Of a DNA stretch of 64,000 nt, positions 4,764 through 15,318 are shown piece by piece. Each line of letters starts with the position of its first letter. Position 1 is the stretch's first letter. The position numbers and the translations under genes are program-made. The notes beneath the pieces are model-generated. The model did not search any database. It saw only the letters and a list, made by a program, of their open reading frames with translations, and was not told where the DNA came from. Where the stretch lies: sequence record PZ452579.1; one strand, written 5' to 3'. The stretch is from a phage.

Positions 4764-4771
4764 TATAAATA
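4764..4771 (+). promoter_or_regulatory. late promoter TATAAATA for gene 34
   Basis: exact TATAAATA about 35 nt upstream of the gene 34 ATG. Confidence 0.6.
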
Positions 4772-4805: not shown

Positions 4806-7800
4806 ATGGTTGACATCAAACGTAAGTTCAGGGCCGAAGATGGTCTTGACGCAGGCGGTGATAAGATAGTTAACGTTGCGCTTGCTGACCGCACAGTTGG
4901 CACCGATGGCGTGAACGTTGACTTTTTGGTGCAAGAAAACACCGTACAGAATTATGACGAGACGCGCGCGTATACAAAAGATTTTATTGTTCTTTATGAT
5001 AATCGTTTTTATCAAGCTTTAAGCGATATTCCAGCTCCGGCGGGCCCTTTCTCTTTGGCTAAATGGAAGGCAACTCGTACAGATGCAGAATGGATTACAG
5101 TTCAAGGCGGAGATTTCCAATTATCAGTAGGTAACTCTATTGCGGTTGATACTTCAGCTGGCACTGATATTAATTTCACTTTGCCTCAAAATCCTTTAGA
5201 TGGCGATACAGTTATTTTGTCTGATATTGGCGGTAGAGTAGGCTATGTAAAAGTTCAAATTACTGCAGCGGCTCAAAGTATTGTAAACTTTAGAGGACAA
5301 CAGGTTCGTTCAGTTTTAATGACGCACCCAAAATCTAAAATGGTCTTCATTTTTAGCAACCGCCTATGGCAAATGTATGTTTCTGATTACGAACGTAATG
5401 CAGTCACAGTAACTCCTGCTACGCCATATCAAGCGCAACCTAATGATTTTATCATTCGACGTTTTACATCAGCCGCTCCTATTAATATTACATTGCCTCG
5501 TAATGCTAATAATGGCGATATTATTAATTTAGTGGATTTAGACAAATTAAACCCATTATATCACACAATTGTCAAAACTTACGATGATACAACTTCTATA
5601 CGAGAAGCTGGTGTTCATGTAGCAGAAGGACGTAATACTGCGGAAGCATTCTTTGTTTATGATTCTGCCAATAGTTTATGGCGTGTTTGGGAAGGTGACC
5701 AGAAATCTCGTTTACGTATAGTTCGTAATGATACTGATTTACGCCCTAATGAAGAAGTTCTTGTTTTTGGAACTAATAATGATACAATCTCGACGGTAAA
5801 TCTTACTTTGCCTACAGATATTTTGTCTGGCGATACTGTTAAAATATCGTTGAATTATATGCGTAAAGGGCAAACTGTAAAAATTAAAGCTGCTGAAGGC
5901 GATACAATTGCTAGCAGTATTTCTTTATTACAGTTCCCAAAACGTTCGGAGTATCCACCTGATGCACAATGGGTTTCTGTTAGTGAGCTGGAATTTAATG
6001 GTGATACTTCGTATGTACCTGTACTTGAGTTAGCTTATATAGAAGATTATTCATCTGAAACAAAATATTGGGTAGTTCAACAAAACACCGTAACCGTCGA
6101 ACGAGTCGATGCATCGAGCAATAACACTCGAGCTCGTTTAGGTGTTATTGCTCTTGCTTCTCAAGCGCAAGCAAATGTCGATTTAGAAAATGCTCCTGGT
6201 AAAGAACTGGCTATTACTCCGGAAACATTAGCAAATCGTACAGCAACTGAAACTCGTCGTGGTATTGCTCGTATTGCAACAACTGCACAAGTTAACCAGA
6301 ATACCGATTTTGCATTCCAAGACGACTTGATTATTTCTCCTAAGAAATTGAACGAACGTACAGCAACTGAAACCCGTAGAGGTGTTGCTGAAGTTGCAAC
6401 TCAGGCTGAAACTAATGCTGGCACAGATGATACCACTATTATTACTCCTAAGAAATTGGATGCCCGTCAAGGTTCTGAAGTTTTATCTGGTATTGTAAAA
6501 TACACATCTACGACTGGTACTACAGCTGCTACTATTCGTGGTAATGCTGGGACTAACGTTTATAACAAAGCCGTAGATAATTTAACTATTTCTCCAAAGG
6601 CTCTTGACCAGTATAAAGCTACCCCTACTCAGCAGGGTGCAGTAATTCTTGCTATTGAAAGTGAAGTTATCGCTGGCGAATCACAAGCTGGTTGGGCTAA
6701 TGCTGTAGTGACCCCTGAAACTCTGCATAAGAAAACTTCTACTGATGGACGTATTGGTTTAATTGAAATTGCTACGCAAGCAGAAACTAACACTGGAACT
6801 GATTATACTAGAGCAGTAACGCCTAAGACGTTAAATGATAGGAAAGCTACGGAAGGATTATCTGGCATAGCCGAAATTGCTACGCAAGTTGAATTTGATA
6901 CTGGAACTGACGATACTCGTATCTCGTCTCCACTGAAAATTAAAACTCATTTTGATTCTTCTGGCCGTACTAGTGTTAATTCTGATTCCGGACTTATTGA
7001 AGAAGGAACCTTGTGGAACCATTATACTCTTGATATTTCTAAAGCAAATGAAACACAACGCGGTACACTTCGCGTAGCGACCCAGGCAGAATCTAATGCA
7101 GGAACTTTAGATGATGTTCTTATTACTCCTAAAAAGCTTTTAGGGACTAAGTCCACTGAAACGTCTGAAGGCGTAATTAAGGTTGCTACTCAGGCTGAAA
7201 CTGTAACAGGAACTTCTGCTAATACTGCTGTATCACCTAAGAATTTAAAATGGATTGTTCAATCAGAACCATCATGGACTGCTACTACGGCAATTCGTGG
7301 ATTCGTTAAAACTTCATCTGGTTCTATTACATTTGTCGGTGACGATACTCAAGGTAATACCCAGGATTTGAATCTTTATGAGAAAAATAGTTATGCTATT
7401 TCTCCATATGAATTAAACCGTGTACTTGCTAACTACTTACCGTTGAAAGCTAAAGCAGCTGATAGTAATTTGTTAGATGGTCTAGATTCTCTTCAGTTCA
7501 TCCGTAGAGACATCGACCAAACGGTTAATGGTTCTTTAAGTCTTACTAAACAGACCAACCTGAGTGCTCCTTTAGTATCTACAAGCACCGCTTCTTTTGG
7601 TTCCGAAGCATCTGTTACTCGTAGATTAACTCTTAATGACTCTAGCGGTTCCGAAATAGTTTTCACTAAAGGAACCCAATCTCTTAGTAATAAAGAGAAT
7701 TTCGTTGTTAGAGCATGGGGTAATAGCGCTACAGATGGTGACCGTGATACAGTATTTGAAGCGGGTGACGAAACCGGATACCATTTCTATTCTCAGCGCG

Positions 7801-8639
7801 CTGCTGATAATAAAGTATCATTTAATATTAATGGAACACTTTATTCAACAGGCATTGTTTCTACAAATGGATTAAATGTTACAGGTGTTTCTACCTTTAC
7901 CGGGCCTATTAGTGCTACAGGCGAAATTGTTTCTAGTTCTCCTATTGCATTCAGAGCTATTAACGGTAACTATGGTGTTATGCTTTATAACGCTGGTAAC
8001 AGTTCTTATATTGCATTAACTAACTCAGGTGACCAGACCGGGACGTTTAATAACTTACGCCCGATCACGATTAACAACGCCACAGGCTTAGTTCGTCTTG
8101 ACAATGGTGTTCAAATCACAAGTGGTGCAACAATAACTACCGGTGGGTTAACTGTAAATAACAGAATTATTTCTAACGGCGTTAAAACTGCCACTGTTTA
8201 TACCGATAAACCAACAGCTTCTACTGTAGGTTTTTGGTCTATTGACATTAACGATTCTGCTGTATATAGCCAATTCCCTGGATACTGGACGCGTGATAAC
8301 AAAGGTAACCGTGACCAAGAAATTAAATATCCTGGTACTTTGACTCAATTCGGCAATAGCTTAGATTCGCTTTATCAGGATTGGATTTGTTATCCTACAG
8401 GTGCAAATGGTGGTAGCATTCGATATACTCGTACCTGGCAGAAAAATAAAGATGCTTGGACTTCATTTGCAATGGTATTTGATAGTGGCAACCCACCTTC
8501 ACCTAGCGATGTCGGTGCTATCCCATCTGATAATGCTGTTATTGGAAACCTTACTATTCGAGACTTCTTACAATTAGGAAATGTGAGAATTGTTCCAGAC
8601 CCGGTTAACAAAACAGTTAAATTTATATGGGTTGAATAA
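4806..8639 (+). CDS. 34: long tail fibre proximal subunit gp34
   Basis: 1277 aa; MVDIKRKFRAEDGLDAGGDKIVNVALADRTVGTDGVNVDF... matches the T4 gp34 N-terminus; SD AAGAGGA. Confidence 0.95.
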   Translation: MVDIKRKFRAEDGLDAGGDKIVNVALADRTVGTDGVNVDFLVQENTVQNYDETRAYTKDFIVLYDNRFYQALSDIPAPAGPFSLAKWKATRTDAEWITVQGGDFQLSVGNSIAVDTSAGTDINFTLPQNPLDGDTVILSDIGGRVGYVKVQITAAAQSIVNFRGQQVRSVLMTHPKSKMVFIFSNRLWQMYVSDYERNAVTVTPATPYQAQPNDFIIRRFTSAAPINITLPRNANNGDIINLVDLDKLNPLYHTIVKTYDDTTSIREAGVHVAEGRNTAEAFFVYDSANSLWRVWEGDQKSRLRIVRNDTDLRPNEEVLVFGTNNDTISTVNLTLPTDILSGDTVKISLNYMRKGQTVKIKAAEGDTIASSISLLQFPKRSEYPPDAQWVSVSELEFNGDTSYVPVLELAYIEDYSSETKYWVVQQNTVTVERVDASSNNTRARLGVIALASQAQANVDLENAPGKELAITPETLANRTATETRRGIARIATTAQVNQNTDFAFQDDLIISPKKLNERTATETRRGVAEVATQAETNAGTDDTTIITPKKLDARQGSEVLSGIVKYTSTTGTTAATIRGNAGTNVYNKAVDNLTISPKALDQYKATPTQQGAVILAIESEVIAGESQAGWANAVVTPETLHKKTSTDGRIGLIEIATQAETNTGTDYTRAVTPKTLNDRKATEGLSGIAEIATQVEFDTGTDDTRISSPLKIKTHFDSSGRTSVNSDSGLIEEGTLWNHYTLDISKANETQRGTLRVATQAESNAGTLDDVLITPKKLLGTKSTETSEGVIKVATQAETVTGTSANTAVSPKNLKWIVQSEPSWTATTAIRGFVKTSSGSITFVGDDTQGNTQDLNLYEKNSYAISPYELNRVLANYLPLKAKAADSNLLDGLDSLQFIRRDIDQTVNGSLSLTKQTNLSAPLVSTSTASFGSEASVTRRLTLNDSSGSEIVFTKGTQSLSNKENFVVRAWGNSATDGDRDTVFEAGDETGYHFYSQRAADNKVSFNINGTLYSTGIVSTNGLNVTGVSTFTGPISATGEIVSSSPIAFRAINGNYGVMLYNAGNSSYIALTNSGDQTGTFNNLRPITINNATGLVRLDNGVQITSGATITTGGLTVNNRIISNGVKTATVYTDKPTASTVGFWSIDINDSAVYSQFPGYWTRDNKGNRDQEIKYPGTLTQFGNSLDSLYQDWICYPTGANGGSIRYTRTWQKNKDAWTSFAMVFDSGNPPSPSDVGAIPSDNAVIGNLTIRDFLQLGNVRIVPDPVNKTVKFIWVE
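6200..7260 (+). repeat. in-frame degenerate tandem repeat units within gp34 shaft
   Basis: At least six units of about 40 aa with core ...TP(E/K)(T/K)L..(R/K).(A/S)TE..RG...(I/V)AT(Q/T)AE(T/S)N.GTD...; reflected at DNA level by recurrent acagcaactgaaac..cgt. Confidence 0.6.
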
Positions 8640-8647
8640 GAGGTTAT

Positions 8648-9772
8648 ATGGAAAAATTTATGGCAAGGTTTGGACAGGGATACGTCCAAACGCCGTTTTT
8701 ATCGGAAAGCAATTCAGTTAGATTTAAGCTAAGTATAGCGGGTTCATGCCCGCTTTCAACAACTAATCCGTATATTTTGTTCCAAAACGAGCCTTTAGGG
8801 TTGCAGTCTTTTGGTATTGGACTAAATGTTAGGGTAATAAATCCGGAAAATGGAACTATAGTTGATAGTAAATTATACAATTTTGCGCCTACAAATAATG
8901 CAACTTCAGCTGCATTTATTTCGTTTGTTAATACATACGCAGATAATTTCATTTTCGCATTTATTTCTAATAACAAATTTAATTTGCCGCCAGAAATAAT
9001 TGAATGGTTTAAAGCTGCTGGGAGTTCAGTTATACCGTCAATTGAAGTTGCTAGTCTTGTTGATATTTCATATTCAGCGTTTTATGTTTCAGGTAAAAAT
9101 ACTATTGCATTAGAACACATAAAATACAGTAATAAGAAAACAATTTCTGATTACGCAACTCCATTAGATATTGTATATGACTCTATTGCTGATATAGGTG
9201 CTACCGGCTATCCTAGACGTACATATGAAGCTCTAGAAACGTTTTTATCTCCTGTTGGAGGAACTAACAATGAAATAAAAAGGATGCCTACATCATCCCT
9301 TGTTACTCCTATCGCAAACTATGGATTAAAACCTACAGATTTTCTTTATTTGAAATTTCAATTAATGGCTGATGAAGAATTATTAGAGGAAGGAACCACA
9401 AGACTTTCAATTCGTTTCTTTAAGACTCCATCTAGCTCTCCTATATCATCTAAAGATATAAACTTTGATGGAACTGCCGGGGAGTGGAAGTTATATGAAG
9501 AATACGTTGAAATACCAGCTGAAGCTGATGGCTTTACAGTATATTGTTACCGTACGGCCTCAGTCGGTCAAGGTGGACTAAGAAATGTTATTTTCACTGA
9601 AGTATCATGTAACGGAAGTATAGCAAAACCCGCCGAGTTTGGTATAAACGGTATTCGTGTTAATTACATTGATGAATCATTAACCGGTAATGATATAATG
9701 GACTTGCCTACTCAGTTATCTAACGACACAGGTAAGGTATTTGGGCAGGAATTTAAAGAGTACACAGAATAA
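8648..9772 (+). CDS. 35: long tail fibre hinge connector gp35
   Basis: 374 aa; position and size match T4 gp35. Confidence 0.85.
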   Translation: MEKFMARFGQGYVQTPFLSESNSVRFKLSIAGSCPLSTTNPYILFQNEPLGLQSFGIGLNVRVINPENGTIVDSKLYNFAPTNNATSAAFISFVNTYADNFIFAFISNNKFNLPPEIIEWFKAAGSSVIPSIEVASLVDISYSAFYVSGKNTIALEHIKYSNKKTISDYATPLDIVYDSIADIGATGYPRRTYEALETFLSPVGGTNNEIKRMPTSSLVTPIANYGLKPTDFLYLKFQLMADEELLEEGTTRLSIRFFKTPSSSPISSKDINFDGTAGEWKLYEEYVEIPAEADGFTVYCYRTASVGQGGLRNVIFTEVSCNGSIAKPAEFGINGIRVNYIDESLTGNDIMDLPTQLSNDTGKVFGQEFKEYTE

Positions 9773-9797: not shown

Positions 9798-9805
9798 TAT
9801 AAATA
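9798..9805 (+). promoter_or_regulatory. late promoter TATAAATA for gene 36
   Basis: exact TATAAATA about 27 nt upstream of the gene 36 ATG. Confidence 0.6.
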
Positions 9806-9831: not shown

Positions 9832-10488
9832 ATGGCCGATTTAAAAGCCGGAAGTACAGTTGGTGGTTCCGTCATATGGCATCAAGGCAATTTTCCTTTA
9901 ATGCCAGCTGGCGATGACATCCTATATAAAACATTTAAATTATATACCGAATATAACAAGCCAAAAGCGGCTGATAACGATTTCGTATCTAAAGCAAATG
10001 GTGGGACATATCTCAAAAAGGTAATCTTTAACGAAGGTGTTGCAGTCAAAACAGCAGATGACCAAACGAATGGTATTTTTTCTGGTGGTGGTGACGCCGC
10101 GACATTCGACCAAACAAACATGGATATTGTTTCGTGGTATGGTATTGGGTTTAAATCATCTCAAGGTACAGGTGAAAGAACTGTTGTAATTGATACTCGC
10201 ACCGGTAATATAAGTTCTAAAGGCATTATTGAAGCATCTCAATTCAGAGCCACAACGTTAGCACCTTTAAATAATTACGACCTTACTCGCAAAGATTATG
10301 TTGATAGTCAAATAAATACAGTTAATGCTAATGCAAACAGTCGTGTACTCCGTTCAGGAGATACGATGACCGGCGCGCTAACCGCCCCAAACTTTTTCTC
10401 ACAGAATCCTGCATCTCAACCCTCGCATGTTCCACGATTTGACCAAATTGTTATTAAGGATTCTGTTCAAGATTTCGGCTATTATTAA
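9832..10488 (+). CDS. 36: long tail fibre proximal connector gp36
   Basis: 218 aa; MADLKAGSTVGGSVIWHQGNFPL... typical gp36 N-terminus. Confidence 0.9.
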   Translation: MADLKAGSTVGGSVIWHQGNFPLMPAGDDILYKTFKLYTEYNKPKAADNDFVSKANGGTYLKKVIFNEGVAVKTADDQTNGIFSGGGDAATFDQTNMDIVSWYGIGFKSSQGTGERTVVIDTRTGNISSKGIIEASQFRATTLAPLNNYDLTRKDYVDSQINTVNANANSRVLRSGDTMTGALTAPNFFSQNPASQPSHVPRFDQIVIKDSVQDFGYY

Positions 10489-10496
10489 GAGGACTT

Positions 10497-13400
10497 ATGG
10501 CTACTTTAAAACAAATACAATTTAAAAGAAGCAAAACTGCAGGAGCACGTCCTGCCGCTTCAGTATTAGCCGAAGGTGAATTGGCTATAAACTTAAAAGA
10601 CCGTGTACTTTTTACTAAAGATGACCAAGGAAATATTATTGATCTGGGTTTTGCTAAAGGCGGTAGTATTGACGGGAATGTTATTCATACAGGCAATTAT
10701 AACCAAACTGGCGATTATACTTTAAATGGCGTCTTCACCCAGACTGGTAATTTTAATTTAACTGGTATTGCTCGAGTAACTCGCGATATTATTGCCGCTG
10801 GGCAGATTATGACTGAAGGCGGAGAACTTATTACAAAAAGTTCAGGTACAGCACATGTTCGTTTTCATGATTCGGCTGATCGTGAACGTGGCATTATTTA
10901 TGCACCGGCTAATGATGGATTAACTACGCAAGTAGTTAATATCCGCGTTAAAGACTACGCCGCTGGTGATGAAAGCACCTATGCATTTTCGGGCAGTGGA
11001 CTATTTACTTCACCTGAAGTGTCAGCATGGAAATCTATGTCAACTCCTCAGATTTTGACAAATAGAGTTATTACTAATAATAAATCTACGAGCGATTATG
11101 ACATTTATTCTATGGCAGACAACGTTCCATTGTCTGAAAGCACTACTGCTATTAATCATCTCCGTGTTATGCGCAATGCTGTAGGCGCTGGTGTATTCCA
11201 TGAAGTTAAAGATAATGATGGAATAACTTGGTATACTGGAGATGGCTTAGACACTTATCTTTGGTCGTTTACCTGGTCCGGTGGATTGAAAGCAGGCCAT
11301 TCTATTTCTGTTGGTACTCCTGGTGGCAATAAAGGATACTCTGAATTAGGGACTGCTTCAATTTCTCTTGGCGATAATGATACCGGGCTAAAATGGCATC
11401 AGGATGGATATTATTTCAGCGTCAATAATGGAACGAAAACATTTTTATTTAGTCCCAACGAAACAACTAGCCTAAGAAAATTTGTAGCTGGATATTCTAC
11501 TACCGGAACCGATTTAACTACTCCTCCAACTGAAAACTATGCTTTGGCCACTGTTGTTACTTACCATGATAATAACGCGTTTGGAGACGGTCAGACTCTT
11601 TTAGGATATTATCAAGGCGGTAACTATCATCATTATTTTCGCGGTAAGGGTACTACAAACATTAATACTCACGGCGGTTTGTTAGTTACTCCAGGTAATA
11701 TTGATGTTATTGGCGGTTCTGTTAATATCGATGGTAGAAATAATGCTTCTACACTGATGTTTAGAGGTAACACAACTGGTAGTAGTTCAGTTGATAATAT
11801 GACAATTTCTGTGTGGGGTAATACGTTTACTAATCCTAGTGTAGGTGATCGTAAAAACGTCATGGAAATTTCTGATGCAACTGGTTGGATGAGCTATATT
11901 CAAAGACTTACAACAGGTGAAGTAGAAATGAACGTTAACGGTTCATTTGAATCATCTGGTGTTACTGCTGGAAATAGAGGAGTTCACACAACAGGTGAAA
12001 TTTCATCTGGAGCAGTGAATGCGCTTCGCATTTGGAATGCAGATTATGGAGCTATTTTTAGACGTTCAGAAGGAAGTCTTCATATTATTCCAACTGCTTA
12101 TGGTGAAGGCAAAAATGGTGATATCGGTCCACTTCGCCCGTTTAGTATGGCTTTAGATACCGGTAAAGTTACTATTCCAGATTTACAATCAAGTTACAAT
12201 ACGTTCGCTGCGAACGGCTATATTAAATTTGTTGGTCATGGAGCGGGTGCCGGCGGTTATGACATTCAATATGCTCAAGCGGCTCCTATTTTCCAGGAAA
12301 TTGATGACGATGCTGTAAGCAAATATTATCCGATTGTTAAGCAGAAGTTTTTAAACGGTAAAGCAGTTTGGTCTTTAGGTACTGAAATTAATTCGGGTAC
12401 ATTCGTTATTCATCATCTGAAAGAAGATGGTTCACAAGGACATACATCTCGTTTTAATCAAGACGGTACAGTTAATTTCCCTGATAATGTTCAGGTTGGT
12501 GGTGGTGAAGCTACTATTGCTCGCAACGGTAATATTTTCTCTGATATTTGGAAAACGTTTACTTCTGCAGGTGATGTAACTAATACCCATGACGCTATTG
12601 CTACTCGTGTTGCCAAAGAAGGTGATACGATGACCGGGCGCTTAACTCTTAATGCAAACTCGGATGCTATTGTTATTAACAGTGCTGCAACCGAATCTGG
12701 TTATGTGAAAGGACAAAAAGCAGGCGTTGATAACTGGTATGTAGGTAATGGTGGGGCTGATAATGCTATATCGTTTTATAGTTTCCGAACTAATTCAGGC
12801 ATATATGTTAATAATGGCGGTGATATTGCTTTAAACCCGGAAGGGTCTGCTACTTTTAATTTTAATAGGGATCGAATTTATATAAATGGGTCAGTCTGGA
12901 CCGCACACCAGGCTGGCGATTGGGGAAATCAATGGCGCCAGGAAGCTCCTGTATTTGTGGATTTTGGTAATGTCGGTAATGATAGTTATTATCCTATTAT
13001 TAAAGGAAAATCTGGTATTACTAATGAAGGTTATATATCTGGTGTAGATTTTGGTATGCGCCGTATCACTAATACATGGGCACAAGGTATTATTCGTGTA
13101 GGCAACCAGGAAGGCGATTCTGACCCACAAGCGATCTATGAATTCCACCACAATGGAGTTATGTATGTTCCTAACATGGTTAAAACCGGAGCAAGATTAT
13201 CGGCTGGCGGTGGTGACCCGGTGTGGACTGGACCATGTCTTGTTATTGGTGATAATGATACCGGATTAGTTCATGGTGGTGATGGGCGAATTAACATGGT
13301 TGCAAATGGAGTGCATATTGCTTCGTGGTCTTCATCTTATCATTCTCATCCTGGCCTTTGGGATTCAAACGGTGCTTTGTGGACAGAAGTTGGCAAAGCA

Positions 13401-13808
13401 GTTATTTCTCATGGTCATTTAGTTCAGGCGAATGACAACTATTCAACATATGTCCGCGATGTTTATGTCCGCTCTGATATTCGTGTTAAAAAGAACCTCG
13501 TTAAATTTGAAAATGCTTCTGAGAAGCTTTCTAAAATTAACGGTTACACTTATATACAGAAGCGAGGCCTAGATGAAGAAGGTAATCAGAAATGGGAACC
13601 AAACGCTGGGTTAATTGCTCAAGAAGTTCAAGCTATTTTACCTGAATTAGTTGAAGGTGATCAGGATGGTGAAGCTTTACTTCGTTTGAACTATAACGGT
13701 GTAATTGGTTTAAATACAGCTGCAATCAATGAGCATACTGCAGAAATTGCAGAACTTAAGTCAGAGATTGAAGAGCTTAAAAAATTAGTTAAATCATTGT
13801 TAAAATAA
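10497..13808 (+). CDS. 37: long tail fibre distal subunit gp37
   Basis: 1103 aa; [39 protein letters not shown]... gp37 N-terminus; C-terminal chaperone-like domain. Confidence 0.95.
13473..13805 (+). other. C-terminal intramolecular chaperone / autoproteolytic domain of gp37 (peptidase S74-like)
   Basis: SDIRVKKNL...[15 protein letters not shown]...[33 protein letters not shown] pattern typical of auto-cleaving tail-fibre chaperone domains. Confidence 0.6.
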
Positions 13809-13839
13809 TAAGAGGGGCTTCGGCCCCTTGGAGGTTTAT

Positions 13840-14613
13840 ATGGCAGTTGAAGGACCGTGGGTAGGATGGTCTGCAAGGGTACAGACTGGAGATCCTTGGA
13901 TGGGTGGTGCCGCACAGAGATTGAGAATGGGAATTCCGTTTTGGATGAGTAATATGATAGGTCGATCTGTTGAAGTAATTCACACACTTGGAGCAGACCA
14001 TAACTTCAATGGTCAATGGTTCCGAGATAGATGTTTTGAGGCAGGTAGTGCACCTATAGTGTTTAATATCACTGGAAATTTAGTATCATATAGTAAAGAT
14101 GTTCCATTATTCTTTATGTATGGCGATACACCAAATGAATATGTTACTTTGAATATTCACGGTGGAGTTCATATGTGGGGACGAGGTGGTAACGGTACTG
14201 TAAACGGAAACCCAGGCACAAATGGCGGCGATGTAATCCAAAATGATATCGGCGGAAGACTTCGTATTTGGAACTATGGCGTTATTGCATCAGGCGGCGG
14301 CGGTGGTGGTGCAATGTCGTTACAGAATAGCTGGGCGCCAAATGCTACAGCAGGTGGCGGTGGTGGTAGACCATTTGGCCTCGGCGGAGGCGGCGTTAAT
14401 TGGCCGGGTGGTAATGCTAGTTATGACGCCCCGGGCGGTGCCGGTTACACTTCCCAATTCGGCGGAGGCAATGGCGGTGATGCTGGAGGTCGTGGCGGAG
14501 ACGGATGGGGTAATCACTTATCTAGATCTGGCGGTGGTGCTCCTGGCAGAGCAGTATTCGGAAGTTCACCGTCATGGGGTGCTACAGGCACAATCTACGG
14601 CTCCTGGATTTAA
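13840..14613 (+). CDS. 38: T2-type receptor-recognising adhesin gp38 with glycine-rich motifs
   Basis: Start at ATG 13840 (SD GGAGG 5 nt upstream); [10 protein letters not shown]...; several poly-Gly blocks ([42 protein letters not shown]) separating variable segments. Confidence 0.85.
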
Positions 14614-14631
14614 ACGATAATACCTCTCAAT

Positions 14632-14639
14632 TATAAATA
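14632..14639 (+). promoter_or_regulatory. late promoter TATAAATA for holin gene t
   Basis: exact TATAAATA about 20 nt upstream of the t start. Confidence 0.6.
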
Positions 14640-14658
14640 TTGATAAATGGGAGGTAAT

Positions 14659-15318
14659 ATGGCAGCACCAAAAGTATCATTTTCGCCTAGTGATATTTTA
14701 TTTGGGTTGCTAGACCGCATTTTCAAAGATAACGCCTCTGGAAATATTCTTATTTCAAGAGTTGCTGTTGTAGTTCTTTTGTTCCTAATGGCACTAATAT
14801 GGTACAAAGGGAATATTTTTATGGATTATTACGTGAGGTCGAAATATGATACTTACACAGAAGTAATTCAAAAAGAAAGAAATACACGATTTGAATCTGC
14901 GGCTTTAGAACAACTACAAATAGTCCACGTCACATCAAGGGCGGATTTTAGTTCGGTGTATTCTTTCAGACCTAAAAATCTAAATTATTTCGTCGACCTT
15001 ATTGCGTATGAAGGTAAGTTACCTAGCACAGTAACTGAAAAATCTATGGGAGGATTTCCTGTTGATAAAACGACAGCAGAATATTCGGTCCATTTAAGTG
15101 GACTTCACTTTACTTCTAAAACAGATTTTGCTTTCTTACCTACCAAATCAAAAACTCCGGAACTGGCGTATATGTATAGTTGTCCTTACTTCAATTTGGA
15201 TAACATATATGCGGGAACTGTTTCTATGTATTGGTATAAGGGGTCGGATGTGTTAAATGAAGAACGCTTGGCTGCAATATGCAACCAAGCAGCAAGGATA
15301 TTAGGGCGGGCTAAATAA
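14659..15318 (+). CDS. t: holin T
   Basis: Start at ATG 14659 (SD GGGAGG); MAAPKVSFSPSDILFGLLDRIFKDNASGN...YMYSCPYFNLDNIYAGT matches T4 holin. Confidence 0.95.
   Translation: MAAPKVSFSPSDILFGLLDRIFKDNASGNILISRVAVVVLLFLMALIWYKGNIFMDYYVRSKYDTYTEVIQKERNTRFESAALEQLQIVHVTSRADFSSVYSFRPKNLNYFVDLIAYEGKLPSTVTEKSMGGFPVDKTTAEYSVHLSGLHFTSKTDFAFLPTKSKTPELAYMYSCPYFNLDNIYAGTVSMYWYKGSDVLNEERLAAICNQAARILGRAK

Follow-up and report, generated by a model that had tools for sequence, protein, structure and literature searches.

The gene pair upstream of the holin gene of this phage raises the question of which protein, gp37 or gp38, carries the receptor-binding tip of the long tail fibre. In T4, where the genes are likewise arranged 37-38-t and the proximal shaft of gp37 is homologous, receptors are bound by the C-terminus of gp37 itself, and the unrelated gp38 serves as a chaperone that leaves the fibre once assembly is complete (PMC6851490; PMC12892980). 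In T2, T6, Ox2 and K3, studied by the Henning group in 1986-89 and by Trojet et al. 2011, a C-terminally cleaved gp37 is combined with a gp38 of about 260 aa, in which conserved glycine-rich motifs (GRMs) occur together with hypervariable segments (HVSs), and the present phage shares this logic. The stretch of DNA analysed here, sequence record PZ452579.1, is 64,000 nucleotides long and is referred to below as the window. With high confidence, the locus is read as encoding the receptor-binding tip of the long tail fibre in an RB69-like Mosigvirus, comprising a gp37 predicted to cleave itself and a gp38 adhesin cap. Such a module is already known, because a reference phage has near-identical proteins and the mechanism is textbook material with solved structures; publications from 1986-89 onwards cover how it is built, how gp37 is cleaved and what the glycine-flanked loops do, and structures became available for S16 in 2018 and for PP01 in 2026. 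The module adds no new biology, and it sets the host range, so that its correct annotation matters for receptor prediction and for the engineering of fibres in phage therapy.

The long-tail-fibre operon and the boundary of genes 37 and 38

The window derives from a Mosigvirus, an RB69-like T-even phage; the DNA of the region is 96.2% identical to Escherichia phage RB69, and other Mosigvirus isolates are 95-96% identical to the window over its first 25 kb. The plus strand displays the canonical layout of the T-even long-tail-fibre operon, in the order 34-35-36-37-38-t, as in RB69. Genes 34 (4806..8639), 35 (8648..9772) and 36 (9832..10488, with a Pfam Phage_T4_gp36 match) are taken from the list of open reading frames, followed by gene 37 for the precursor of the distal long-tail-fibre subunit (10497..13808, 1103 aa, stop included, with matches to Pfam Gp34_trimer, gp37_trimer and Peptidase_S74), gene 38 for the tail-fibre adhesin (13840..14613, 257 aa, stop included, with matches to Pfam GP38 and Gp38_N) and the holin gene t (from 14647, Pfam Phage_holin_T). 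Gene 38 is thus situated between gene 37 and holin t, separated from gene 37 by a spacer of 31 nt. In RB69 (NP_861944/NP_861945), the gene order and the lengths of the two proteins, 1103 and 257 aa, are identical. A second in-frame TAA (13809..13811) directly follows the stop codon of gene 37.

The spacer contains an intercistronic RNA hairpin on the plus strand, GAGGGGC-UUCG-GCCCCUU (13812..13829), and the segment 13795..13850 folds with -17.6 kcal/mol (z -2.65). A hairpin is located at the equivalent place in T2 and S16, where the stem sequences differ and the loops are UUCG or UACG. The Shine-Dalgarno sequence of gene 38, GGAGG (13830..13834, plus strand), adjoins the hairpin and lies 5 nt upstream of the ATG; it is kept in RB69, Ac3, QL01 and Sa45lw, and in RB69 both the hairpin and the Shine-Dalgarno sequence are identical to those of the window phage. 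On these sequence features, namely the upstream GGAGG, the resulting length of 257 aa and the start annotated in RB69, the start of gene 38 is assigned to ATG 13840. A TTG at 13828, which would give a protein of 261 aa, was considered and rejected, being located within the 3' arm of the hairpin and without a Shine-Dalgarno sequence. Open reading frames that overlap gene 38 in other frames or strands (13691..14620) are regarded as a side effect of GGN-rich coding, and it is the gp38 frame that gives the full-length Pfam match.

Neither a tRNA scan of the whole window nor an Rfam scan of the whole window at the gathering cutoffs found anything. Late-promoter boxes of the form TATAAATA occur 6 times in the window against 7.3 expected, which is not above chance. 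Three TATAAATA boxes are noteworthy by placement alone, being located upstream of genes 34, 36 and t.

The C-terminal chaperone domain of gp37 and its predicted cleavage

The C-terminus of gp37 is occupied by an intramolecular chaperone of the Peptidase_S74 family (Ser993-Lys1103, 111 aa; 13473..13805, plus strand). The family model (PF13884, 'Chaperone of endosialidase') matches gp37 residues 993-1052 (nt 13473..13652) with an E-value of 7e-13 and 49.1 bits against a cutoff of 22, spanning model positions 1-57 of 58. The first-pass annotation had described the last 110 or so residues as an S74-type chaperone, and this description is borne out by the Pfam match and by the profile matches to 7DC3 and 3GUD given below. 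It had also placed the module at 13473-14613, an interval that proves exact to the base: the codon of Ser993, the residue with which SDIRVKKNL begins, opens at nt 13473, and 14613 closes the stop codon of gene 38. Downstream of the chaperone core, residues 1075-1103 or thereabouts form a heptad-like helical tail, for which a weak match to the designed coiled coil 7WBN (E 0.6) may be taken as suggestive only.

In characterised members of the Peptidase S74 family, the catalytic Ser directly follows the scissile bond and a Lys is situated five residues downstream. The corresponding dyad, Ser993 and Lys998, is present in gp37 (SDIRVK), and it is invariant in six to seven relatives. Furthermore, S993, D994, R996 and K998 are all invariant in alignments with RB69, T2, S16, QL01, Cronobacter phage S13 and Sa45lw, at identities of 27-94%. 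The autocleavage site is predicted between Arg992 and Ser993 (DVYVR^SDIRVKK; 13470..13475, plus strand), from the alignment with the S16 site and with residue 1 of 3GUD.

The domain was also searched against the sequences of the PDB. With the single sequence of gp37 residues 943-1103, the S16 gp37 construct 6F45_A is matched across the whole C-terminus (E 4e-39), and MYRF is reached at E 0.012; convincing matches to the S74 family required a profile built from six sequences of the chaperone domain. This profile matches 6F45_A (E 5e-53), the intramolecular-chaperone autoprocessing (ICA) domain of MYRF, 7DC3 (E 2e-9), the tail fibre 8JOV (E 5e-6) and 3GUD, a chain from the neck appendage protein of GA-1 (E 7e-3). 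As deposited, 3GUD starts with SDERHK, and its first Ser aligns with Ser993 of gp37. In MYRF 7DC3, the Lys aligns with Lys998 and the crystallised chain has an Ala opposite Ser993. The S74 domains (PF13884, 3GUD, 7DC3) share with gp37 the C-terminal position in a trimeric fibre, the Ser-x4-Lys dyad, the AGxIAQ core and the helical tail, whereas the sequence similarity to 3GUD and 7DC3 is distant only (profile E 2e-9 to 7e-3). As a further difference, the cleavage in gp37 would also open up a surface on which another protein, the adhesin, can dock, as reported for S16 (PMC7917993).

In the case of S16, a homologous segment of 113 aa is reported to be autocleaved at DLNVS^SDRRIKK, exposing the docking surface for gp38 (PMC7917993), and this site aligns with DVYVR^SDIRVKK of gp37. 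For T2 and T6, PMC3157838, citing Drexler 1986, states that gp37 undergoes cleavage and that gp38 subsequently caps it. Homology to these characterised relatives gives good support to the S74 assignment and to a predicted cleavage at Arg992^Ser993. A direct demonstration of RB69 gp37 processing was not found in the literature.

Alternatively, the S74-like domain might be kept in the mature fibre as a degenerate, non-cleaving trimerisation or coiled-coil module, with gp38 attached elsewhere. The limitation of the Pfam match to residues 993-1052 would fit this arrangement, as would the circumstance that the cleavage in this phage and in RB69 is a prediction from homology. It is nevertheless very unlikely, because the SDxRxK motif with its Ser/Lys dyad is intact and invariant across relatives as distant as 27% identity, purifying selection on the domain is strong (dN/dS 0.07 vs RB69), the S16 homologue, whose chaperone domain is 55% identical, is reported to autocleave at the aligned bond, and T2 and T6 gp37 are reported as processed (PMC3157838). 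In the preferred reading, which involves removal of the domain, gp37 would be made as an 1103-aa precursor, and the 111-aa chaperone would nucleate and register the trimerisation of the β-helical gp37 tip. The chaperone would then excise itself by autoproteolysis between Arg992 and Ser993, dependent on Ser993 and Lys998, and the cleavage would bare the blunt end of the gp37 trimer.

Architecture of the gp38 adhesin

The gp38 protein belongs to the adhesin type along its whole length. Pfam GP38 (PF05268) covers residues 45-257 (E 4e-83, 278.9 bits, model positions 1-218 of 218), and Pfam Gp38_N (PF21721) covers residues 1-40 (E 6e-20, 71.3 bits, model positions 1-40 of 40). Simultaneously, full-length gp38 matches the crystal structure of S16 gp38 (6F45_D, E 1e-47), and residues 37-256 match that of the receptor-binding domain of PP01 gp38 (9V85, E 2e-74). 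The earlier claim of an adhesin unlike the T4 chaperone therefore holds on both Pfam families and both structures.

The possibility that gp38 acts as a T4-like assembly chaperone outside the virion, leaving the receptor-binding site in gp37, derives from nomenclature: the protein is named 'distal long tail fiber assembly catalyst' in AY303349, the first GenBank record of RB69, and in the records of several relatives. This name was inherited from the numbering of the T4 genes, and in the related GenBank records that carry it, 'assembly catalyst' is a misnomer for an adhesin-type gp38. According to the RefSeq note for RB69 itself, the adhesin of the T2 subfamily is its 'gp38', a protein unrelated to the T4 one. 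Only adhesin Pfam families were found in the present protein, and T4 gp38 is described as unrelated in the RefSeq note and in PMC6851490. Given the full-length match to GP38 and Gp38_N, the matches to the S16 and PP01 adhesin crystal structures, and a gp37 that ends in a removable S74 domain and not in a receptor-binding tip of the T4 kind, a chaperone role of this sort is highly improbable.

In S16, the N-terminal three-helix attachment domain of gp38 uses Trp residues to fill three equivalent pockets of the gp37 trimer (PMC6851490; the prongs also in PMC7917993). The attachment domain of the present gp38 comprises residues 1-40 (13840..13959, plus strand; Pfam Gp38_N). In an alignment of eight sequences, all have Trp at positions 7 and 20, and seven have it at position 35, where Phi1 has Tyr. 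From the reading of this alignment, Trp7, Trp20 and Trp35 are candidates for the three Trp prongs of S16.

The specificity region (residues 114-239; 14179..14556, plus strand) is composed of GRMs alternating with HVSs. The HVSs are situated at residues 120-128 (a), 158-170 (b), 186-189 (c), 201-207 (d) and 221-230 (e), and residues 129-150 constitute a β-helix return. The glycine runs are GGGGGG at 152-157, GGGGG at 172-176, GGGG at 182-185, and GGG at 208-210 and 231-233, and Gly amounts to 25% of gp38 overall and to 37% of residues 113-240, compared with 12.5% in gp37. A gp38 of about 257 aa with poly-Gly blocks, as first described, is accordingly what ATG 13840 yields: 257 aa, with runs of 6, 5, 4, 3 and 3 glycines. 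The local GC content rises to 0.49-0.51 at 14000..14750 from about 0.38 in the surroundings, because of the GGN codons of gene 38.

The two kinds of segment differ markedly in conservation. Among seven distinct gp38 sequences, the majority-residue fraction is 0.65-0.98 in the GRMs, with near-constant lengths, vs 0.32-0.46 in the HVSs, with variable lengths, and the GRM glycines are invariant in the eight-sequence alignment. Gene 38 as a whole is under purifying selection (dN/dS 0.07 vs RB69). The same GRM/HVS pattern is described by Trojet et al. 2011, who assign the specificity determinants to the segments between the Gly blocks; the suggestion of the first-pass annotation that these segments determine specificity coincides with this published model, which is shared by the authors of the S16 structure (PMC6851490) and of the PP01 gp38 study (PMC12892980), and the conservation count fits it. 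In addition, genetic and structural evidence that gp38 is located at the fibre tip of the virion and determines receptor specificity has been obtained for T6, RB5/RB32, Ox2, S16 and PP01 (Trojet et al. 2011; PMC6851490; PMC12892980).

In S16 gp38, a β-helix is followed by a three-layer polyglycine-II (PGII) sandwich of GRMs, and the hypervariable loops are the proposed receptor-binding site (PMC6851490); PP01 gp38 likewise forms a PGII sandwich with HVS loops (PMC12892980). From the matches to 9V85 and 6F45_D, we infer the same PGII-sandwich fold for the specificity domain of the present gp38. The biased composition of this region, with 37% Gly, could also be read as low-complexity, slippage-prone filler without a structural role, the specificity being located elsewhere in gp38. 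This would leave unexplained that no other part of the domain is as well conserved as the Gly blocks, whose lengths stay fixed among phages with only 46-73% identity, and that the Gly blocks of the homologues form PGII helices in crystal structures (PMC6851490; PMC12892980). Furthermore, T6 phages with single GRM or HVS deletions could not be recovered as viable phage, from which the authors conclude that all of these segments are needed for efficient adsorption (Trojet et al. 2011). A filler role thus has almost no likelihood.

Within the context of the PGII sandwich, a single gp38 would dock on the bared gp37 trimer via its N-terminal three-helix attachment domain with Trp7, Trp20 and Trp35. 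The GRMs in the C-terminal half would fold into the sandwich, and the projecting hypervariable loops would bind an outer-membrane protein, most probably OmpF, as for RB69 and FL31. A contribution of the LPS core, and possibly of FhuA or TolC, would accompany the binding to OmpF. The cleavage, the 3:1 stoichiometry of gp37 and gp38, the location of gp38 in the virion and the identity of the receptor are all expected here by homology. What this analysis observed directly are the genes and their domains, the residues for catalysis and structure, the pattern of conservation and the purifying selection, and nothing in the sequence contradicts the reading as a receptor-binding module.

Relatives, receptor specificity and the mosaic gene 37

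The closest forms of gp38 are those of RB69 and FL31 over the whole protein, and those of PP01 and Sa45lw in the N-terminal half. RB69 gp38 is identical at 255 of 257 positions (99.2%), the differences being M158V, at the first residue of HVS b, and L181I. In Mosigvirus FL31, gp38 is 96% identical, and M158V is the sole difference within the specificity half. The label 'T2-type' given in the first-pass annotation is therefore right for the class of adhesion module, and it does not extend to the nearest relative, since the closest forms are those of RB69 and FL31 and gp38 is only 44-47% identical to that of T2.

The chaperone domain has 36% identity to its T2 counterpart, which is shorter by 11-12 aa. 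The C-terminus of gp37 and the N-terminus of gp38 co-vary as a lock-and-key pair (PMC3157838), of which T2 represents another subtype than the window phage; a gp38 of the PP01 type is reported to be incompatible with T2 gp37 (PMC12892980). The tip of Salmonella phage S16 (6F45) shares with the window phage the gp37 chaperone with the SDxRxKK motif, the three-Trp attachment domain of gp38, the β-helix and the GRM/HVS sandwich. The structure of the S16 (gp37)3-gp38 tip complex was published in 2018 (Dunne et al. 2018). The S16 gp38 is about 42-49% identical to that of the window phage, and its HVS loops differ and are shorter.

The receptors of these related forms differ as well. S16 targets OmpC of Salmonella (PMC12892980), whereas the gp38 of the window type is linked to OmpF of E. 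coli. RB69 is among the receptor-tested phages, and its infection is reported to require OmpF and FhuA together with a complete LPS core (Trojet et al. 2011). FL31 depends weakly on OmpF and TolC, with a drop of about 1 log on ompF and tolC mutants (PMC12032242). From its sequence, the present phage is predicted to have an OmpF-dependent, RB69/FL31-like specificity. The receptor data for gp38 of the RB69/FL31 type are not clean, with OmpF, FhuA and LPS according to Trojet et al. on one side and the drop of about 1 log for FL31 on the other.

The gp37 protein has 95% amino acid identity to RB69 gp37, and RB69 differs at residues 825-992 or so, which are Ac3/Jbel-like in the window phage. Sliding identity, dS and megablast delimit a recombination patch at 12964..13472 on the plus strand, coding for the last 170 or so residues of the predicted mature gp37, that is, the distal tip with the docking surface for gp38. 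In the rest of gene 37, up to about 12960, the sliding-window identity is 91-100% to RB69 and 52-100% to Ac3; from about 12964 to 13488 it is 79-86% to RB69 and 92-99% to Ac3. The chaperone domain and the N-terminus of gp38 are similar to RB69 and Ac3 alike. In the specificity half of gp38 (14090..14613), the sliding-window DNA identity is 97-99% to RB69 and 44-69% to Ac3. The values of dS vs RB69 follow the same course, with 0.80 over gp37 residues 841-992 against 0.05-0.22 elsewhere; for the chaperone domain and for gene 38 they are 0.05-0.10. The best megablast matches of 13017..13472 are Jbel (97.1%) and Ac3 (96.3%).

On sequence grounds, gene 37 looks like a mosaic produced by modular exchange at conserved blocks, and comparable recombination has been described for gene 38 (Trojet et al. 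2011). The tip of mature gp37, which is homologous to the gp37 part of 6F45_A, is Ac3-like and not RB69-like, and therefore the exact docking surface differs from that of RB69; the N-terminus of gp38 is nevertheless identical to both RB69 and Ac3. The phage might accordingly represent a natural chimera with functional consequences, joining an Ac3-like gp37 tip (residues 825-992 or so), an RB69-type chaperone and an RB69/FL31-type specificity domain of gp38, with the boundaries of exchange at the conserved block of the chaperone domain and the gp38 N-terminus. Such consequences are considered unlikely; if they exist, either the chimeric combination or the lone M158 at the start of HVS b might alter the fit of gp37 and gp38, or the receptor preference, relative to RB69. 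Ac3, the phage resembled by the patch, is a Tequatrovirus. A further short stretch identical to Ac3, near 12067..12291, is located within the RB69-like part of gene 37.

Recombination patch and adhesin variation

Judging from sequence comparison, the segment at 12964–13488, encoding approximately residues 825–992 of the distal long-tail-fibre subunit gp37, is a recombination patch within gene 37. This segment shares 92–99% identity with the Tequatrovirus Ac3 and only 79–86% with RB69, and Salmonella phage Jbel is 97% identical to it. Outside the patch, genes 37 and 38 are RB69-like, and the dS against RB69, which reaches 0.80 in the patch, is 0.05–0.22 elsewhere. In the hypervariable loops of the adhesin gp38, the sole difference from RB69 and FL31 is Met158 (14311–14313), where both have Val; this residue opens the hypervariable segment HVS b, immediately following the GGGGGG motif.

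Hairpin and transcription of gene 38

A stable hairpin, GAGGGGC-UUCG-GCCCCUU (13812–13829), lies after the two consecutive stop codons of gene 37 (TAATAA, 13806–13811) and ahead of the Shine–Dalgarno sequence of gene 38. In T2 and S16, too, this position is occupied by a hairpin, with stems of different sequence and loops of UUCG or UACG, and this recurrence points to conservation of an intercistronic RNA element. The hairpin resembles the C(UUCG)G hairpins known from T4 mRNAs. A terminator appears unlikely, since no T-run follows the hairpin. Across the 64-kb window (1–64000), no tRNA genes were found, and no Rfam family was matched at gathering thresholds.

T4-late-promoter-like TATAAATA boxes are located on the plus strand just upstream of gene 34 (4764–4771), gene 36 (9798–9805) and t (14632–14639), the total number of such boxes across the window showing no excess over chance. 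No TATAAATA box was found upstream of gene 38, which argues that gene 38 is probably transcribed together with genes 36 and 37.

Start of holin t and a gp35 domain match

The listed ORF of holin t begins at ATG 14647, yielding MGGNMAAPKV, and the equivalent start is annotated in RB69. The more likely start is ATG 14659 (MAAPKVSF), because the GGAGG Shine–Dalgarno sequence at 14650–14654 serves this codon and the resulting product matches the N-terminus of the T4 holin. The FL31 holin is annotated from a later start, in agreement with ATG 14659.

In the fibre hinge protein gp35 (8648–9772), residues 58–131 match the Pfam ILEI family (interleukin-like EMT inducer, PF15711) with an E-value of 6e-7, barely over the gathering score.
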